Assembly (NCBI GenBank): GCA_015063795.1
Contig: SVTL01000007.1
Coordinates: 12,600 to 76,599, forward strand
Length of the DNA: 64,000 nucleotides
Direction: 5' to 3'
Source: Oscillospiraceae bacterium
GTDB taxonomy: Bacteria; Bacillota; Clostridia; Oscillospirales; CAG-272
Each line of letters begins with the position of its first letter. The first letter of the stretch is position 1. The notes beneath the pieces are model-generated. The model saw only the letters and a program-made list of their open reading frames with translations. It was not told the origin of the DNA and searched no databases. The position numbers were made by a program, and so were the translations under genes. Shown one piece after another: positions 43,436-60,694 of the stretch.

Positions 43436-43990
43436 ATGATTGCCGTGCTCAGAGAAAAGGACGATATCCGCATTTTTATTCTGTTTTTGCTTCGTAACAT
43501 CGGATACCCGCTCAGCTATTATGACCTCCATGACGTGGTCACACAGGATGGGTATGTCAATTCCTTTGACTGCACCGAATGCATCGATGACCTGGTGAAA
43601 AACGGCAATCTTCTGCTGACACAGGAAAATGGGAAGGATATGTATGCCATCACCGAGCAGGGATGCCTGGTGGCCGATGAGTTGAACAGCCGCCTGCTTC
43701 ACACCATCCGCGAAAAGAGCCTGCGGAGTGCCTTTCGCTTTATGGATTTCAAGAAGAAGGGCTCGCGTGTGATCTGCCGCGTCAAGCCCAATATGGACAC
43801 AACGTATGAGATCACCTGCGGCGTGGCTGAGAGAGATCGGGATCTGATGATGATCACCGTCCATGTGGACAACGATTCCACCAAGGAGCGCATCCTGCAC
43901 AATTTCGACGAGCGTCCCGAAGCGGTCTACCGCGGCATGATGGCCCTTCTGACCGGCGAAATGAATTATCTTTTCGAGGATAGCGACTAA
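43436..43990 (+). CDS. DUF4364-like winged-helix protein
   Basis: IFILFLL...YAITEQG...PEAVYRGMM pattern; start uncertain. Confidence 0.65.
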   Translation: MIAVLREKDDIRIFILFLLRNIGYPLSYYDLHDVVTQDGYVNSFDCTECIDDLVKNGNLLLTQENGKDMYAITEQGCLVADELNSRLLHTIREKSLRSAFRFMDFKKKGSRVICRVKPNMDTTYEITCGVAERDRDLMMITVHVDNDSTKERILHNFDERPEAVYRGMMALLTGEMNYLFEDSD

Positions 43991-44084
43991 CAGGATTTCT
44001 GTGAAGAATGAACAAGATTTTGCATGGCTTCTTGTGAAAAATGAAAGAAACGGCAAATCTTTTTAAAAAATTGTAAAAAAAGTA

Positions 44085-44112
44085 TTGACAACGAAAAAAA
44101 GTGTGATATAAT
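44085..44112 (+). promoter_or_regulatory. Sigma-A promoter
   Basis: TTGACA-16 nt-TATAAT with extended TG. Confidence 0.7.
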
Positions 44113-44142
44113 GTGAATGAGTTTGGAGAGGAATTTTTTCTG

Positions 44143-44715
44143 GTGAAAGATCAAAATCCGGCCAATCAATCGGCGGGATCGGTTGAAAAGAACCGTATTC
44201 TTGCCGCGCGAAACGGCGATCATGAAGCGTTTAATGCTTTGTGGGAGCAGTATCGCCCGATGGTTTTTAAAACGGTATTTCTCTACTGCCGTTCCGATGC
44301 GGCCCGCACCGAGGCGGACGATCTGCGTCAGGAGGCGTCCATCGCCCTGTATGATGCGGTCAAAAGCTTTGATGTGAGTCAGGATCGGATCACCTTCGGT
44401 CTGTATGCCAAGCGCTGTGTCACCAATCGCATCATCTCTGCGCTGCGGAAGCTGAAAAAGCACCGCTCCGATGGGGAGGAGCCGATTCTGTCCGATGAAT
44501 CGCCCGATCCGCTGGAAGAGATCATCGATCGGGAGAGCTATGAAGCGCTGGTCAAAAAGATCGAAGGGGCTTTGAGCGGTTATGAAAAGGCGGTCTATGA
44601 CCTTCATGTGGAGGGGAAGAGCTGCCGCGAGATCGCATCGGCCCTGAAGCGGTCGGAGAAATCGGTGGGGAATGCCATGTGCCGCATTCGGTCCAAGCTG
44701 GAATCCATCCTCTGA
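44143..44715 (+). CDS. SigH-like RNA polymerase sigma factor
   Basis: DDLRQEASIALYDAVKSFD, LSGYEKAVY...GKSCREIA...KSVGNAMCRIRSKL; GTG start after GGAGAGG. Confidence 0.8.
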   Translation: MKDQNPANQSAGSVEKNRILAARNGDHEAFNALWEQYRPMVFKTVFLYCRSDAARTEADDLRQEASIALYDAVKSFDVSQDRITFGLYAKRCVTNRIISALRKLKKHRSDGEEPILSDESPDPLEEIIDRESYEALVKKIEGALSGYEKAVYDLHVEGKSCREIASALKRSEKSVGNAMCRIRSKLESIL

Positions 44716-55457: not shown

Positions 55458-55624
55458 GGGAACCTTCCTTTGTATCAAACGTAAAAAACACGGTGGTTTC
55501 TATCATCATACCACATTTGAAAACGGAATACAAGAAGAAAAGCAAAAATAAGACGTCCATCTTGACAAAACCTCGTCTTCGGTGGTATCATAAAAGGGAA
55601 GAATACAAAAGGACGGTGGAACCG

Positions 55625-56392
55625 ATGCATGTTGAACTGATTGCCCATACCCCCGATGCCGATAAGATCGTTGCGGCGGCGGCCAAGCTCTGTTATTCCA
55701 AAAGCGAGATCCAGACGCTTCTGGACAACCTGACGCCCGAAAAGACCGAGCGTTTTTTGGATATGCTGGTGGAGAGGGGACATGAGAGCCCGGTGGAGCA
55801 CGCCACGTTTACCTTCGGGATCGAGGGCGTTTCCCGTGCACTTCTGGCGCAGATCACCAGGCACCGCATCGCTTCCTTCTCGGTGCAGAGCCAGCGGTAC
55901 AACGAGGAATCCTCCTTTGCTTATGTCACGCCCCCCGAGTTTGAGGGCATCCCCGAGGCCAAGGCCGAGTTTGAAAGCGCCATGGAAGAGGCCGCACAGC
56001 ATTACGATTCGCTGCGGCAGCATCTTGTCCGCGCCCACACCGCCCGTCTGATCGCCGAGGGCATGAGCGAGGAGGAGGCGAGAAAGGCCGCAGGCAAGCA
56101 GGCCAATGAGGATGCCCGCTTCGTTCTGCCCAACGCCTGCTGCACGAAAATGATCATGACCATGAACGTCCGCTCGCTGTACAACTTTTTCCGCCTGCGC
56201 TGCTGCAACCGCGCGCAGTGGGAGATCCGCGAGCTGGCCAATCGGATGCTGGCCCTCTGCCGCGAGGCGGCACCCAATCTCTTCCGCTATGCCGGTCCTC
56301 CCTGCCTGAAGGGGAAGTGCCCGGAAGGGGTGTTCACCTGCGGAAAAGCGGGTGAGATCCGCCGTCAGTACGGTGTGTCGGTCAAGGATTGA
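55625..56392 (+). CDS. thyX: FAD-dependent thymidylate synthase
   Basis: GHESPVEH, RHRIASFSVQSQRY, EDARFVLP, AQWEIR. Confidence 0.96.
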   Translation: MHVELIAHTPDADKIVAAAAKLCYSKSEIQTLLDNLTPEKTERFLDMLVERGHESPVEHATFTFGIEGVSRALLAQITRHRIASFSVQSQRYNEESSFAYVTPPEFEGIPEAKAEFESAMEEAAQHYDSLRQHLVRAHTARLIAEGMSEEEARKAAGKQANEDARFVLPNACCTKMIMTMNVRSLYNFFRLRCCNRAQWEIRELANRMLALCREAAPNLFRYAGPPCLKGKCPEGVFTCGKAGEIRRQYGVSVKD

Positions 56393-56748
56393 TCGTCGCA
56401 GCGGCGGCAGCCCAAAGCAGCTGACAAACGGTAGACGCTGGTGCGGCTGATGTTCAGCTTTTCAGCCACCTCCTCCAGCGTCAGCCCGTCCAGATAACGG
56501 TATTTGAAGAATAAATGCTCACGTAATATCCTCCGCCTCAGCTGCGGGGGATATTGTTTTGTGTAAGAAAGAAAATAGTCGTTTTTGATGGCTGTCATCT
56601 CCTTCTTCAAGTCACCGATCAGGTCGAGAAGGAAGGGATCGACAGGCTTGTCCCGCAGACGCAGACGCTCAGCCTCAAGCAGCAGATCGCGCAGCTCGCG
56701 TTTGTAAACAGGATAGCTTTTGAGCCGTTCTTTCAGTTGTTTTTCCAA
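56365..56748 (-). CDS. Sigma-region-4-type HTH protein, RinA/ArpU-like phage activator by resemblance
   Basis: N-terminal KERLKSY helix; C-terminal YRYLDGLTLEEVAEKLNISRTSVYR; TTG start after AGGAAGGTG. Confidence 0.6.
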   Translation of the reverse strand: MEKQLKERLKSYPVYKRELRDLLLEAERLRLRDKPVDPFLLDLIGDLKKEMTAIKNDYFLSYTKQYPPQLRRRILREHLFFKYRYLDGLTLEEVAEKLNISRTSVYRLSAALGCRRCDDQSLTDTPY

Positions 56749-56774
56749 ATGATGTCACCTTCCTTCCCTAAATC

Positions 56775-57014
56775 TTAGTTTAGGTCTTCTCCATCGGCAT
56801 CGAAGAGCCCCGAAAAGGGAATGCCGAGCTCAACAAACAGCTCGCTCACCGAATCGACGCCGAAACGGTCGGCCAGATCGTCGAGATCCATCTTCTCCGC
56901 GCAGGCAGGGCAGATGATGTGCTCATCGATCTGGAAATAGGATGATGTGTGCGCGCCGCACTCTCCGCAGAGCGGATCAGACGGACGGCAGGGATAAAAA
57001 TCAGACAAGGGCAT
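56775..57014 (-). CDS. Small putative zinc-binding protein (CxxC...CxxC)
   Basis: CGECG...YFQIDEHIICPAC; AGGAGG SD. Confidence 0.65.
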   Translation of the reverse strand: MPLSDFYPCRPSDPLCGECGAHTSSYFQIDEHIICPACAEKMDLDDLADRFGVDSVSELFVELGIPFSGLFDADGEDLN

Positions 57015-57032
57015 AACCTCCTAACGTATGAA

Positions 57033-57044
57033 GAACATATGTTC
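57033..57044. promoter_or_regulatory. LexA (SOS/Cheo) box
   Basis: Perfect palindrome GAACATATGTTC (GAAC-N4-GTTC) between the promoter and SD of the 57014 gene. Confidence 0.8.
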
Positions 57045-57060
57045 GTTTGTTTCCGGATTC

Positions 57061-57089
57061 ATTATACCACAACGAAGAAGAAAGCGCAA
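57061..57089 (-). promoter_or_regulatory. Sigma-A promoter of the SOS-box operon
   Basis: TTGCGC-17 nt-TATAAT with extended TG. Confidence 0.7.
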
Positions 57090-57155: not shown

Positions 57156-57239
57156 CACAAAAGATCACAAAAGATCACAAAATTGTGCAACTTGTACAGA
57201 TGTAGAAAAAAACGCCTTTATTTTGTGCAAATCGCACAA
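57156..57239. repeat. CACAA/TTGTG repeat cluster
   Basis: CACAAAAGAT x2 plus CACAAAA, TTGTGCAACTTGTACA, palindrome TTGTGC-AAATC-GCACAA. Confidence 0.7.
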
Positions 57240-57634: not shown

Positions 57635-60600
57635 ATGAAAAGAACCAGATTAGCGAGAGCGTTTTGTCTTTTTCTGGCTGTCCTGATGGCGACCGGTGCC
57701 TTCTCGGCGTTCGGCGTATCGGCAGTCGGCGAAACCAAAACCTCGGACAACGGTGTTGTCGCCGTTGAAAAAAGCTCTCTGCAGCAGATGATGGAAATAC
57801 TTGACGTTATTTCCTATTACGAGTATGCAGAAAAGTATGCGGAGATCCCGCGCGCCAAGCAGCCGATCACCATTCAGGCGGCTGATTATCTGGCGTCGGA
57901 GACCACTGCCGCTGTCACCGTGGAGACCGATTACGAGGGCTCGACCGGCAAGTCTCTTGCCACGCCTTCGGACGGTAAGGTCTCTTGGGAAGTGAACATT
58001 CCCGAGGACGGTAAGTATGCAGTCAAATTTGTGTACTATCCCACGCTGGGCAAGGCATCCGCCATTGAAAGAATGATGTACATCGACGGCTTCATCCCGT
58101 TCGCAGAAGCCCGTTCGCTGACGGCCACCAAGAGCTGGGAGGACGTGTATGAGGGCGAGTTCGGTGTGTTCGTAAGAGACATCAACGACAACCAGATCCG
58201 CCCCGAAAAGGCACAGAAGCCCTTCTGGACCGAGTATGTGGCAACAGACTCCACCGGTTACAATGTGAACCCCCTGGAGTTCTACTTCACCGCGGGCAAG
58301 CACGTGATCACGCTTGAGTCGGTCCGTGAGCCTATGGTGCTCAAGGAGATCACGCTGTATCCTTATGAGGATCTGCCTACCTATGCCGAGGTTCTCGCTG
58401 AGTACGAGAAGAAGGGATATAAGGAAGTTTCTGCCGATGCCACCCTGCACATCCCGGCTGAGATCTCCTCCAGAACCTCCGAGCAGACCATCTACCCCAT
58501 TTCCGACCGTACCAGCCCGATCACCGAGCCGCAGGATGCGTCTCTGGTCCGACTGAACACCATCGGTGCCGAGAAGTGGAAGACCGTCGGCCAGTGGGTT
58601 GAGTATGACGTGGATGTCAAGGAAAGCGGCCTTTACAAGATCGTGCTGCGCTTCAAGCAGTCCGAGCTGGCCGGTATGTACACGTCCAGAAAGTTATATA
58701 TAAATGGAGAGGTTCCGTTCGAGGAGGCCAACTATCTGCAGTTCAACTTCGACAACAACTGGCAGGTCAAGGCTCTCAACGACGGCTCGCAGGAGTTCCT
58801 GTTCTATCTGGAAAAGGGAACCAACACGCTCCGTTTTGAAGTTGTTCTCGGTCACTTGGGCGAGATCCTTCGCCGTGCCCAGGATGCACTGAATATGATG
58901 AACACCACCTATACCTCGATTTTGAAGATCACGGGTTCCACCCCTGACCAGTACCGTGACTACGACTTTGCTGCACTGATCCCCGATGAGATCGGTATGC
59001 TCGGCCTTGCCGCCCAGGCTCTGCGCGGTGTGTCCGAGGAGCTGGTTTCCATCACCGGTCAGCGCGGATCGCACGTGGCCACGCTGGATAAAGTGTTCGT
59101 CCTTCTCGAAAGAATGTACGAGGATGAGGACGAGATCGCCAAGAACCTTTCCAACCTGAAAACATACATAGGTACTCTCGGAACTTGGCTTGCCAGCTCG
59201 ATCAGTATGCCTCTGGAGGTCGACTACATCAATCTTCAGAATTCCACTGAGGCTCTGCCGGCTGCCAACGCCAACTTCTTCCAGAAGATGTGGCACGAGA
59301 TCAAAGCCTTTGTCATGAGCTTCTTCTCCGACTACAGCTCGCTGGGCAGCACCTCCGAGGAGGTCAGCGGCGAGGCTGTTGAGGTTTGGGTCACCACCGG
59401 ACGCGAGAGATCCCAGATCCTCCGTTCGCTGATCGATAACGAGTTCACGCCTCACTCCAACATCAGCGTAAATCTGAAGCTGGTCGCAGGCGGTATCCTC
59501 CAGTCGACTCTTGCCGGCATCGGTCCCGACCTGGCAACGCTGAGCTCTGCCGACTGTATCAGCTATGCCATCCGTGATGCGGTTCTTCCCATCACACCTC
59601 ATAGCTATGAGGATGAGGAAGGTGACGACGAGGCAACCAAGAAGCGCAATGCCGAGCTCCGCGAGATCTTCTCTGACTTCAATGAAGCGATCAAGGCATT
59701 CCCCGCTTCCTCCACCGTTCCGCTCACCCTTTACGGCGAGACCTTCGGTCTGCCCAACACCATGGCGTTCCCCATGCTCTTCTACCGCATGGATATCTTC
59801 GCTGACCTCGGTCTCGAGGTTCCGAGAACCTGGGATGAGCTGCACGCCATCGTTCCCGTTCTCCAGAACAACTACATGGATGTCGGTTTCCCGCAGAAGC
59901 TGCCCGGCCTGAAGATGTTCCTCTATCAGAACGGCGGCGAGCTGTTTGCCGATGACGGTAAGCGAATCAACCTCGACTCCAACGTGGCGCTGACTGCCTT
60001 CGAGCAGCTCTGCGACCTGTTTGAAAAGTATAAGTTCCCGCTTAAATACGACTTCCCGAACCGTTTCAGAACCGGTGAGATGCCTCTGGGCATTGTGGAC
60101 TATGTCACCAACTACAACCAGCTGGTCGTCTTCGCTCCTGAAATCGAGGGCCTTTGGGAATTCACCTCCCTGCCCGGCGTTGAGCATGAGGACGGTACCA
60201 TCCGCAACGTATCGGTTACCGAAGTAACGGCCATTTCCATGCTGAAGGGCTGTGAGGGCAACGAAAAGAATGCTTGGGAGTACATGAAGTGGTACACCGG
60301 CGCTACCTGCCAGTCCCGTTACTCCAGTGAGTTGGTTGCCATCGTCGGTCCCTCCTCGAAGTACAACACGGCCAACATCGAAGCGCTCGAGTCCATGCCC
60401 TGGACCAGCCGTGAGTACTCCAACCTGATGCTTCAGTTCGAAAACACCGTGGGTGTTCCCGAATATCCCGGAAGCTATATCATTGACCGTTATGTAAGCT
60501 TCGCCTTCCTTGATGTTTACAACGACGGCGCTGATGCTGTGGAATCTCTGCTTGATATTGTTACCGATATCAACAAGGAAATTACCCGCAAGCGTAAAGA

Positions 60601-60694
60601 GTTCCATTACGATTACCTCGAATTTGATTACTCCACCTCCGCACAGTACATCGAATCGGCCGACGGTTCTGCTGAAACCGAACAGGCATCCTAA
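57635..60694 (+). CDS. Very large extracellular solute-binding protein (N-terminal CBM-like beta domains plus C-terminal family 1 SBP)
   Basis: Signal peptide; GQWVEYDVDV.ESGLYKI jelly-roll-like segment; MLFYRMDIF, VPRTWDEL, FRTGEMPLGI, AWEYMKW. Confidence 0.8.
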   Translation: MKRTRLARAFCLFLAVLMATGAFSAFGVSAVGETKTSDNGVVAVEKSSLQQMMEILDVISYYEYAEKYAEIPRAKQPITIQAADYLASETTAAVTVETDYEGSTGKSLATPSDGKVSWEVNIPEDGKYAVKFVYYPTLGKASAIERMMYIDGFIPFAEARSLTATKSWEDVYEGEFGVFVRDINDNQIRPEKAQKPFWTEYVATDSTGYNVNPLEFYFTAGKHVITLESVREPMVLKEITLYPYEDLPTYAEVLAEYEKKGYKEVSADATLHIPAEISSRTSEQTIYPISDRTSPITEPQDASLVRLNTIGAEKWKTVGQWVEYDVDVKESGLYKIVLRFKQSELAGMYTSRKLYINGEVPFEEANYLQFNFDNNWQVKALNDGSQEFLFYLEKGTNTLRFEVVLGHLGEILRRAQDALNMMNTTYTSILKITGSTPDQYRDYDFAALIPDEIGMLGLAAQALRGVSEELVSITGQRGSHVATLDKVFVLLERMYEDEDEIAKNLSNLKTYIGTLGTWLASSISMPLEVDYINLQNSTEALPAANANFFQKMWHEIKAFVMSFFSDYSSLGSTSEEVSGEAVEVWVTTGRERSQILRSLIDNEFTPHSNISVNLKLVAGGILQSTLAGIGPDLATLSSADCISYAIRDAVLPITPHSYEDEEGDDEATKKRNAELREIFSDFNEAIKAFPASSTVPLTLYGETFGLPNTMAFPMLFYRMDIFADLGLEVPRTWDELHAIVPVLQNNYMDVGFPQKLPGLKMFLYQNGGELFADDGKRINLDSNVALTAFEQLCDLFEKYKFPLKYDFPNRFRTGEMPLGIVDYVTNYNQLVVFAPEIEGLWEFTSLPGVEHEDGTIRNVSVTEVTAISMLKGCEGNEKNAWEYMKWYTGATCQSRYSSELVAIVGPSSKYNTANIEALESMPWTSREYSNLMLQFENTVGVPEYPGSYIIDRYVSFAFLDVYNDGADAVESLLDIVTDINKEITRKRKEFHYDYLEFDYSTSAQYIESADGSAETEQAS

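Follow-up and report, generated by a model that had tools for sequence, protein, structure and literature searches.

The stretch analyzed here is a window of 64,000 nt from the genome of an Oscillospiraceae bacterium (contig SVTL01000007.1, C18 below), and its subject is a small operon on the minus strand (56365-57089) that encodes a 79-aa protein with two CxxC pairs (the Cys4 protein) and a 127-aa protein ending in a helix–turn–helix (HTH) of the sigma-region-4 type (the HTH protein). Our analysis suggests, with a probability that we would put at roughly 60%, that the HTH protein is a phage-type late activator under direct LexA control, and that it drives an element resembling a gene transfer agent (GTA). 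In the undamaged cell, LexA sitting on a box in the leader would block a strong extended −10 promoter; upon DNA damage, self-cleavage of LexA would allow the operon to be expressed, and its 127-aa product would then act like a phage late transcriptional regulator (Ltr), binding short direct repeats just upstream of a terS promoter that lacks a −35 element. It would thereby turn on an integrase-less, P22-like head, packaging, and lysis cluster on another contig (C22), together with a promoter of the same design on contig C6. Since the leader of this genome's own terS cluster has an identical LexA box, LexA would gate both the activator and its target.

An initial annotation of this DNA had proposed a promoter, a GAACATATGTTC palindrome, a Shine–Dalgarno sequence, a 79-aa CxxC open reading frame (ORF), and a 127-aa ORF with a sigma-region-4 domain, and all of these are found where it had put them. 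The module is laid out as follows:

57061 to 57089, minus strand: module promoter, as read from the sequence, of the extended −10 type with a weak −35
57033 to 57044, palindrome: LexA (Cheo-type) box GAACATATGTTC in the transcribed leader, between the −10 and the Shine–Dalgarno sequence
57017 to 57022, minus strand: Shine–Dalgarno sequence AGGAGG of the first gene, 2 nt ahead of the ATG at 57014
56775 to 57014, minus strand: ORF of the Cys4 zinc-ribbon protein, 79 aa, with an acidic helical C-terminal tail
56365 to 56748, minus strand: ORF of the HTH protein, 127 aa, a helical hairpin plus a sigma-region-4 HTH (Sigma70_r4); putative Ltr-type late activator

The predicted promoter consists of a −35 TTGCGC (57089-57084), a 17-nt spacer, and a −10 TATAAT (57066-57061), the last carrying a TG at 57069-57068 that gives TGgTATAAT (57069-57061). 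Its −35 matches TTGACA at just 3 of 6 positions, which accounts for its absence from the consensus-scan list, and it is best called an extended −10 promoter; the form TGTGGTAYAAT has 22 copies in the genome, one of them ahead of the LexA-like gene. The box starts 16 nt past the −10 and ends 10 nt ahead of the AGGAGG. An in-frame TTG at 57008, 8 nt after the Shine–Dalgarno sequence, is better spaced from it than the ATG, so that a Cys4 protein of 77 rather than 79 aa is possible, and a second ribosome-binding site precedes the 127-aa ORF. Contigs from an RNA library (run X8) span both genes without the adjacent intergenic DNA, while a DNA run spans the whole stretch; one RNA contig end, at 57054 and thus 7 nt past the −10, is a weak hint, as such contigs give neither strand, level, nor ends. 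The 10-mer CACAAAAGAT is exactly duplicated in tandem at 57156-57175, ~70 nt upstream of the −35 and inside an A/T-rich intergenic stretch of 620 nt; in a repeat search around the module, the listed intergenic repeats gave no lead.

The presence of a GAAC-N4-GTTC match in the window is in itself at chance level (one found against 1.10 expected, with 71 of 100 shuffles reaching one), so the weight of the box comes from its position and from its conservation in orthologous loci. Such conservation, which the initial annotation had named as a check, is indeed found. Among the 30 best loci of the family, 24 have a perfect box within 500 nt upstream of the HTH gene, two have a box with one mismatch, and the four without a box are the four weakest matches. 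An independent scan of named genome records, from gut metagenome-assembled genomes (MAGs) of uncultured Clostridia, Oscillospiraceae, and Eubacteriales, gave 29 loci, of which 27 have a perfect box upstream, one has a box with one mismatch, and one offers just 32 nt of upstream sequence. A hand count in this second set places 29 perfect boxes in the upstream windows, which total ~14.5 kb, and 8 in all the rest (~289 kb). The genome itself has a LexA-like gene (PF00717, 3.5e-32, a 202-aa ORF on contig C16), near-boxes precede both it and an ORF that by eye is RecA-like, and perfect GAAC-N4-GTTC boxes number 10 genome-wide; a 12-mer identical to the GAACATATGTTC of the window lies in the leader of the terS cluster on C22. 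With an operator in the leader, conservation of that operator, and a LexA gene all present, membership of the operon in the LexA regulon is the best explanation of these comparisons, and we infer that LexA binds the box and that DNA damage induces the operon.

The comparisons also change the view, taken initially, of the two genes as one unit. In most orthologous loci, the box lies 30-85 nt ahead of the HTH gene with no ORF between them, the Cys4 gene being present in some lineages only; the conserved unit, as judged from these loci, is the LexA box plus the HTH gene.

Several other LexA-type sites were observed. A second perfect box occupies a fixed place beyond the ATP-binding cassette (ABC) permease genes, ~5.7-5.9 kb upstream of the HTH gene, at six loci (L084, L089, L091, L092, L094, and L108). 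Two LexA-type boxes 34 nt apart (C29:179546 and 179580) lie upstream of a MiaA-like ORF (read by eye), 3 kb from a tyrosine recombinase gene at C29:176138, and two near-consensus boxes 33 nt apart (C2:33049 and 33082) lie in the upstream region of an MraZ-like ORF (read by eye). Intergenic repeats of CAATTCATG-type units, resembling repetitive extragenic palindromes, occur upstream of the terS promoter on C22 (L003:18760-19000) and at C24:16915/17088; they produce spurious long ORFs and two of the 10 “perfect” genomic GAAC-N4-GTTC matches.

The HTH protein had initially been assigned to the RinA/ArpU-like activators, an assignment that our searches do not uphold. The window protein has a Pfam Sigma70_r4 match of 27.6 bits (cut-off 24.1) over residues 76-105 and matches phrog_36, “transcriptional regulator” (2.7e-11); the NCBIfam models of RinA (TIGR01636) and ArpU (TIGR01637) do not match it at E ≤ 1, and DUF1492 (PF07374), at 0.089, falls below its cut-off. 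Across 15 aligned relatives, Sigma70_r4 matches 14, DUF1492 five weakly (best 4.3e-4), and RinA and ArpU one each, both weakly. The protein belongs with the small phage regulators of the Sigma70_r4/DUF1492 type, outside the RinA and ArpU families. Its AlphaFold model (predicted local distance difference test, pLDDT, 88.8) has residues 3-31 and 38-62 in a long helical hairpin, and its next three helices (68-86, 91-98, and 102-111) are of the region-4 type. A Foldseek search of this model against the PDB returned nothing at E ≤ 0.001, and a profile search of PDB sequences found region-4/YlxM-like stretches only. Among predicted viral structures, the top full-length neighbors are gut-phage proteins of 108-155 aa named Sigma70, extracytoplasmic function (ECF) sigma, or DUF1492 (probability ~1, template modeling (TM) score 0.44-0.59, E 4e-3 to 5e-2), and in the ESM Atlas they are clusters of 116-149-aa proteins, 50-100% viral, carrying DUF1492 and Sigma70_r4 (TM 0.60-0.66 over residues 3-114).

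The apparent distribution of the HTH protein depends on the sensitivity of the search. A word-based protein search finds only two close relatives (99% and 79% identity), a genome search with the single protein finds 17 positives among 201 family genomes (G000 included), and a 15-sequence profile finds the gene in 109 of 401 family genomes and 32 of 97 genera, nearly always as a single copy. In the wider order, the profile matches 7 of 301 genomes, with only two matches, both weak, outside the family.

The initial annotation had placed the target of the activator elsewhere, perhaps in a gene-transfer agent, a tailocin, or a cryptic phage locus. The integrase-less cluster on C22 supplies a concrete candidate, its activation by the HTH protein being suggested by gene neighborhood, promoter design, and covariation of the recognition helix with promoter repeats:

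C22, ~48.5 to 56.7 kb, minus strand: integrase-less head/packaging/lysis cluster, with a LexA box in the leader, then terS onward

The gene order is terS-like, TerL (PHROG 2.3e-46, Terminase_3/6N), a 579-aa ORF, a P22-like portal, a short acidic ORF, the capsid (phrog_267, 1.7e-47), two small ORFs, an M23 peptidase, and a 73-aa ORF that is holin-like as read by eye. The flanks hold PckA-like and C-N hydrolase-like ORFs (also read by eye), and recombinase families matched nothing on C22. Of the 401 family genomes, 297 have this TerL, at 50-67% identity and mostly as a single copy; they come from 72 of 97 genera. In the order, 103 of 301 genomes have the capsid, and five families (f17, f18, f20, f27, and f3) have it in all their sampled genomes; the protein has at least 6967 database relatives, and the 120 listed (at least 58% identity) are unnamed or “P22 coat protein” entries of Clostridia MAGs. 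The fixed place, the lack of integrase and replication genes, and the vertical spread together form the pattern of a domesticated element. From its gene order and description, the cluster looks like a GTA of the type found in Faecalibacterium prausnitzii (FpGTA), and it would presumably produce particles.

Several comparative patterns tie the module to this cluster. We sorted the 30 best TerL loci by HTH status, which gave 10 loci from genomes without the HTH gene (genera g18, g58, and g2) and 20 from genomes with it. A Cys4 ORF lies directly upstream of terS at 9 of the 10 HTH-less loci and at none of the 20 HTH-bearing ones, and the HTH-linked and terS-linked Cys4 groups are homologous (hhalign 98.8%, E 1.1e-16, 74 columns). 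The two systems are physically close in G225, where the HTH gene is ~2.5 kb beyond the capsid gene, and in G282, where the Cys4-HTH pair is 9 kb from terS; in the genome of the window, the HTH gene and terS are on different contigs. By hand tally, TerL is found in 101 of the 109 HTH-positive genomes, compared with ~196 of the 292 others.

Promoter architecture follows HTH status as well. The Cys4-terS operon of genera g18 and g58 is preceded by a standard TTGACA-17-TATAAT promoter, LexA boxes are close by, and two genomes of this set have a divergent repressor-like gene (read by eye). In HTH-bearing genomes, by contrast, the terS promoter has no −35 and instead carries tandem repeats beside the −10, in four copies in G028, G044, G012, and G225. 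A perfect LexA box within 1 kb upstream of TerL is found at 15 of the 30 loci, namely all 10 HTH-less and 5 of the 20 HTH-bearing ones, four more having a one-mismatch box only. The repeats vary together with the recognition helix: SRRT is paired with TGGCAC repeats (G012, G225, and G010), SRS/SRA with TGAGACT (genera g37 and g29), SRDT with repeats having a TTGC core (G044, G145, G346, and G066), and the SRTS helix of the window protein with CGGTAC. The binding specificity thus appears to sit in the C-terminal helix, and the HTH protein is predicted to bind the terS repeats.

The same promoter design recurs at a few further places. In the 2.16-Mb genome of the window, GGTAC-N5-GGTAC occurs twice, at the terS promoter and at a promoter on C6, with an identical 15-mer and −10 in both. 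The C6 promoter (~43497-44217; L131:15398-16118, minus strand) drives a 214-aa ORF rich in Lys, Glu, and Arg, which has no Pfam match and two marginal PHROG matches only; a SecG-like ORF (read by eye) comes next. A further copy of the terS promoter motif precedes a tail-spike-like gene (phrog_4636, 7e-18) in G145 and G257 and a BppU_N protein (PF10651, 1.4e-9) in G346, which also has the motif at a third site. GAGACT tandems are present at the terS promoter in four of the five genomes searched, with none in G240. This shared design probably marks a small regulon.

A number of candidate signals were set aside. Two matches of the automated repeat test were A-rich artefacts, and two extra GAGACT tandems, which lie inside coding sequence and have no promoter features, were put down to chance. 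The 11-mer TTGCWACTGTT alone was no rarer than its control in five genomes, only its extended contexts being informative, and a 7-mer common to the module region and the region upstream of the C22 cluster was dismissed because it occurs 512 times genome-wide.

The profile search also reached a more distant HTH type, in genera g37, g29, g60, g11, g13, g22, and g23. At the 20 loci of this type that we examined, a Cys4 ORF lies directly upstream in 10 and a perfect LexA box by the module in 3; in many of them, repeats resembling operators surround a TTGACA...TATAAT promoter, and there is a divergent Xre-type gene (both features as read by eye). At 10 loci (L112, L114-L118, L124, L125, L129, and L130), the promoter is flanked by TTCGGAAATGCGA-like operators, again with a divergent Xre-type gene as read by eye. 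In this arrangement, what appears to be a switch of the phage kind stands where the LexA box would be. Three layouts thus seem to be in use within the family: a repressor or LexA acting on a Cys4-terS operon; an Xre-type switch acting on a Cys4-HTH operon, whose product seems to act on a repeat-bearing terS promoter; and LexA acting on an HTH gene, with or without Cys4, that seems to act on such a terS promoter, sometimes with LexA on the target too.

The CxxC pairs of the Cys4 protein are at residues 16-19 and 35-38, and in an alignment with 16 homologues four cysteines are invariant and the acidic helical tail is conserved. Searches of Pfam, NCBIfam, and PHROG gave no family above cut-off, the Pfam zinc-ribbon matches being weak and sub-threshold; the protein may resemble zinc-binding anti-sigma (ZAS) or Ogr/Delta-type zinc-finger regulators, but at the level of family models it matched no signature of theirs. 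Its model, two hairpins and three short helices, is of moderate confidence (pLDDT 67). From its gene linkage, the Cys4 protein probably belongs to the same system as the product of an accessory gene, with co-activator, antirepressor, or packaging accessory as candidate roles.

The chromosomal setting of the module is that of a housekeeping region, and the initial annotation was right that no prophage surrounds it: no integrase or virion family matched at E ≤ 1e-10 in a Pfam scan of 50 window ORFs, which gave housekeeping functions only (tRNA synthetases, FtsK, L20, germination protease, homoserine dehydrogenase, ApbE, and ThyX), and recombinase families matched on contigs C29, C7, C28, and C15 only, with none on C18. 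Its thyX neighbor is confirmed (ThyX, PF02511, 4e-74; ~55622-56392, plus strand), the gene converging on the HTH gene with a 28-nt overlap (56365-56392). One further feature belongs to this junction:

56523 to 56557, plus strand: terminator-like hairpin (terminator scan) inside the HTH gene, downstream of the convergent thyX

Given that this plus-strand hairpin lies inside the HTH gene, thyX transcripts may extend antisense into it. A convergent thyX is found at 4 of the 30 HTH loci, in different genera, and recurs in G082, G071, and G103. On the other side, a divergent ORF of at least 1088 aa followed by ORFs of ~320 aa stands beside the HTH gene in 8 of 8 loci examined, and a pattern scan of IMG/VR found no relatives of the HTH family, so the non-phage synteny that the initial annotation proposed to look for is present. 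Its “sugar ABC operon” has indirect support only: SBP_bac_1/8 or BPD_transp_1 (solute-binding or permease) families match at this position in 7 of the 8 orthologous loci, whereas the three corresponding ORFs of the window have no Pfam match at the strict cut-off of the window scan. Among these is a 1019-aa ORF (57635-60694), in the place where orthologous loci have ABC solute-binding proteins (SBPs) of 1088-1306 aa. The comparison supports a chromosomal, vertically inherited module lying outside any prophage.

The idea of a domesticated DNA-damage switch therefore stands as regards its chromosomal place, its conserved box, and the presence of a LexA-like gene; LexA binding, induction, and activation of the cluster are the parts that we infer. 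Several observations count against an Ltr-type activator driving the cluster. What ties the HTH protein to the cluster is circumstantial evidence, and the relatedness of the genomes confounds all of the comparative patterns: three genera account for the 10 HTH-less loci, seven of which are from a single genus, and each helix/repeat class represents one or two clades, so that these patterns count clades and not independent events. The own terS promoter has two 7-nt repeat copies and a −10 only, and an automated tandem-repeat test (at least three repeats, shuffle p ≤ 0.05) gave a convincing positive at only 3 of 20 loci and a marginal one in G010. The window protein does not reach significance with the RinA, ArpU, or DUF1492 model; 8 of the 109 HTH-positive genomes have no TerL match by hand tally; and G001 has an activator-type terS promoter with no HTH gene found (the genome is 72% complete). 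The “box” seen ~500 nt upstream of TerL in genus g18 falls within the Cys4 ORF, at codons N-K-C-S, and could be a coincidence arising from the coding. No tail-fibre gene was found in the genome of the window, and, with a LexA box in its own terS leader, the activator is not strictly needed for SOS control of the cluster.

These points make it worthwhile to consider what else the HTH protein could do. It could be an SOS-induced regulator of a different target, such as the divergent operon with the giant SBP, the convergent thyX, or a cell-cycle function, in which case its ties to the cluster would reflect shared ancestry. The divergence from the large SBP/ABC operon, kept at all eight loci examined, the convergent thyX at 4 of 30 loci across genera, and the separate LexA box of the own terS cluster would be consistent with this. 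However, the CGGTAC-repeat promoter design is found at terS and on C6 only and is absent from the 620-nt region upstream of the SBP gene, the closest folds of the protein are those of phage late-regulator-like proteins, and the move of the Cys4 gene between the HTH operon and the terS operon, the adjacency in G225, and the covariation of helix and repeats would all be left unexplained. We consider a different target unlikely on these grounds. As for the module being a functionless, decaying remnant of an old prophage regulatory region, the resemblance of the HTH protein to phage proteins and the small size of its sequence family (two close database relatives) could be read in this way, but in many genera intact ORFs occupy the same syntenic position, have retained the operator, and are present in single copy, and the RNA-library contigs that span both genes and not the adjacent intergenic DNA argue weakly in the same direction; decay has very little probability in our view.

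A further question is which of the two proteins is the switch. LexA-controlled small antirepressors are known in coliphage 186 and the Gifsy prophages, and the Cys4 protein could by analogy be the real one, as an SOS-induced antirepressor or a zinc-finger activator, with the HTH protein being a secondary or lineage-specific helper, or else a repressor or immunity factor of the cluster. In all three layouts, the de-repressed unit opens with the Cys4 gene, whether ahead of the HTH gene, ahead of terS, or behind an Xre-type switch, and in g18 and g58 the cluster runs with a Cys4 gene and no detectable HTH gene. Yet most LexA-boxed orthologous loci have no Cys4 gene, so the Cys4 protein is not the essential part there. 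Moreover, HTH-less genera have TTGACA-17-TATAAT before Cys4-terS where HTH-bearing genomes have no −35, and loss of the −35 in the latter is expected if the HTH protein is an activator. With its model of moderate confidence only and no family above cut-off, the Cys4 protein is an improbable candidate for the main switch, and activation by the HTH protein under LexA control is the reading that we carry into the comparison with known systems.

The Ltr superfamily comprises RinA, ArpU, LtrA (= Sigma70_r4), LtrB (= DUF1492), and LtrC (PMC3753634). That article describes Ltr proteins as small, expressed after SOS induction, and binding ~7-nt direct repeats upstream of terS, with Ltr as the sole phage factor needed to turn on the packaging and lysis operon (PMC3753634). 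Compared with what is described there, the HTH protein is likewise small, has a C-terminal sigma-region-4-like HTH, is presumably released for expression by the SOS response, and has as its presumed target a terS promoter with short direct repeats. It differs in that its gene stands at a fixed housekeeping locus away from terS and not at the end of a phage early operon, is under a direct LexA box and not a phage cI repressor, and would act on a domesticated cluster without integrase or replication genes.

FpGTA, as described in a 2026 report, consists of about ten genes that include a terS without an obvious DNA-binding domain, terL, portal, scaffold, and capsid; its podovirus-like, 40-nm particles contain 8.4-8.9 kb of host DNA, and it is present in all Faecalibacterium genomes examined, with a second locus for tail-fibre and lysis genes (PMC12946183). 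The same report finds GTA-like packaging of host DNA to be prominent in gut Oscillospiraceae and Ruminococcaceae (PMC12946183). The C22 cluster shares with FpGTA the gene order from terS to capsid and the short-tailed-phage type, and the order-wide spread of its capsid gene fits the presence of FpGTA in every genome of a gut Clostridia lineage, but the cluster itself holds the lysis genes (the M23 peptidase and, as read by eye, a holin-like ORF). A regulator of FpGTA is not described in the main text of PMC12946183, where “LexA” occurs 0 times and “SOS” once, in a generic sense; mentions in its supplementary files would escape this count.

Regulators from other lineages offer partial parallels. 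As with the alphaproteobacterial GafA and LexA, a GTA-specific activator would have its gene outside the structural cluster and would receive a signal from the SOS regulator, although lineage and protein architecture are unrelated; here, LexA boxes are found at the activator gene itself and, for some genomes, at the terS promoter too. In alphaproteobacterial GTAs, LexA acts indirectly. In PBSX of Bacillus subtilis, which has an Xre repressor, the DNA-damage-inducible, sigma-like positive factor Xpf turns on the late operon of a defective phage, and the Xre-type switches seen by eye beside the second HTH subfamily recall this system. UviA of Clostridium perfringens is a sigma-like factor expressed from a LexA-controlled promoter that turns on a bacteriocin gene. 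Xpf and UviA carry regions 2 and 4, whereas the HTH protein has region 4 only and should therefore be an activator rather than a sigma factor. The packaging operon I of Staphylococcus aureus pathogenicity islands (SaPIs) is reportedly under LexA control, and the boxes at terS promoters suggest a similar direct action of LexA on a terS-containing packaging operon; SaPIs, however, are mobile satellites with an integrase, whereas the C22 cluster has a fixed place and broad conservation. Each ingredient has precedents: Ltr-type late activators, activators specific to GTAs, and LexA control feeding into GTAs or packaging operons have all been described. No printed account was found, in the papers searched, of the combination seen here, in which a gene like that of a late activator is fixed amid housekeeping genes, stands directly under LexA, is conserved in a gut Clostridia family, and is paired by comparative evidence with an FpGTA-like cluster; mentions confined to supplementary files would have escaped the search.

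In its widest form, which we put forward tentatively and at a little short of even odds, our proposal is that the LexA-controlled HTH gene, with the Cys4 gene where present, is the master switch of a family-wide FpGTA-like GTA in gut Clostridia. Under this proposal, DNA damage, with antibiotics among its causes, would be a direct trigger for host DNA to be packaged and released. The mode of control would have changed several times, the alternatives being LexA acting directly, an Xre/CI-type switch, and an Ltr-type activator working in trans, while activator helix and promoter repeats co-evolved; the Cys4 protein would represent a novel type of small partner in such switches. If true, this would provide a concrete circuit for the timing of particle production, from the LexA box through the Ltr-type activator to repeat-bearing terS and tail-fibre promoters, as well as a clear case of a phage late activator relocated to a housekeeping locus under direct host control. 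The helix/repeat classes would offer a natural specificity-swap system, the three layouts within one family would show how the control of a domesticated element is rewired, and the control of GTA-like particles in the gut would become directly testable. Gene exchange among abundant gut commensals would, if so, be tied to DNA damage.

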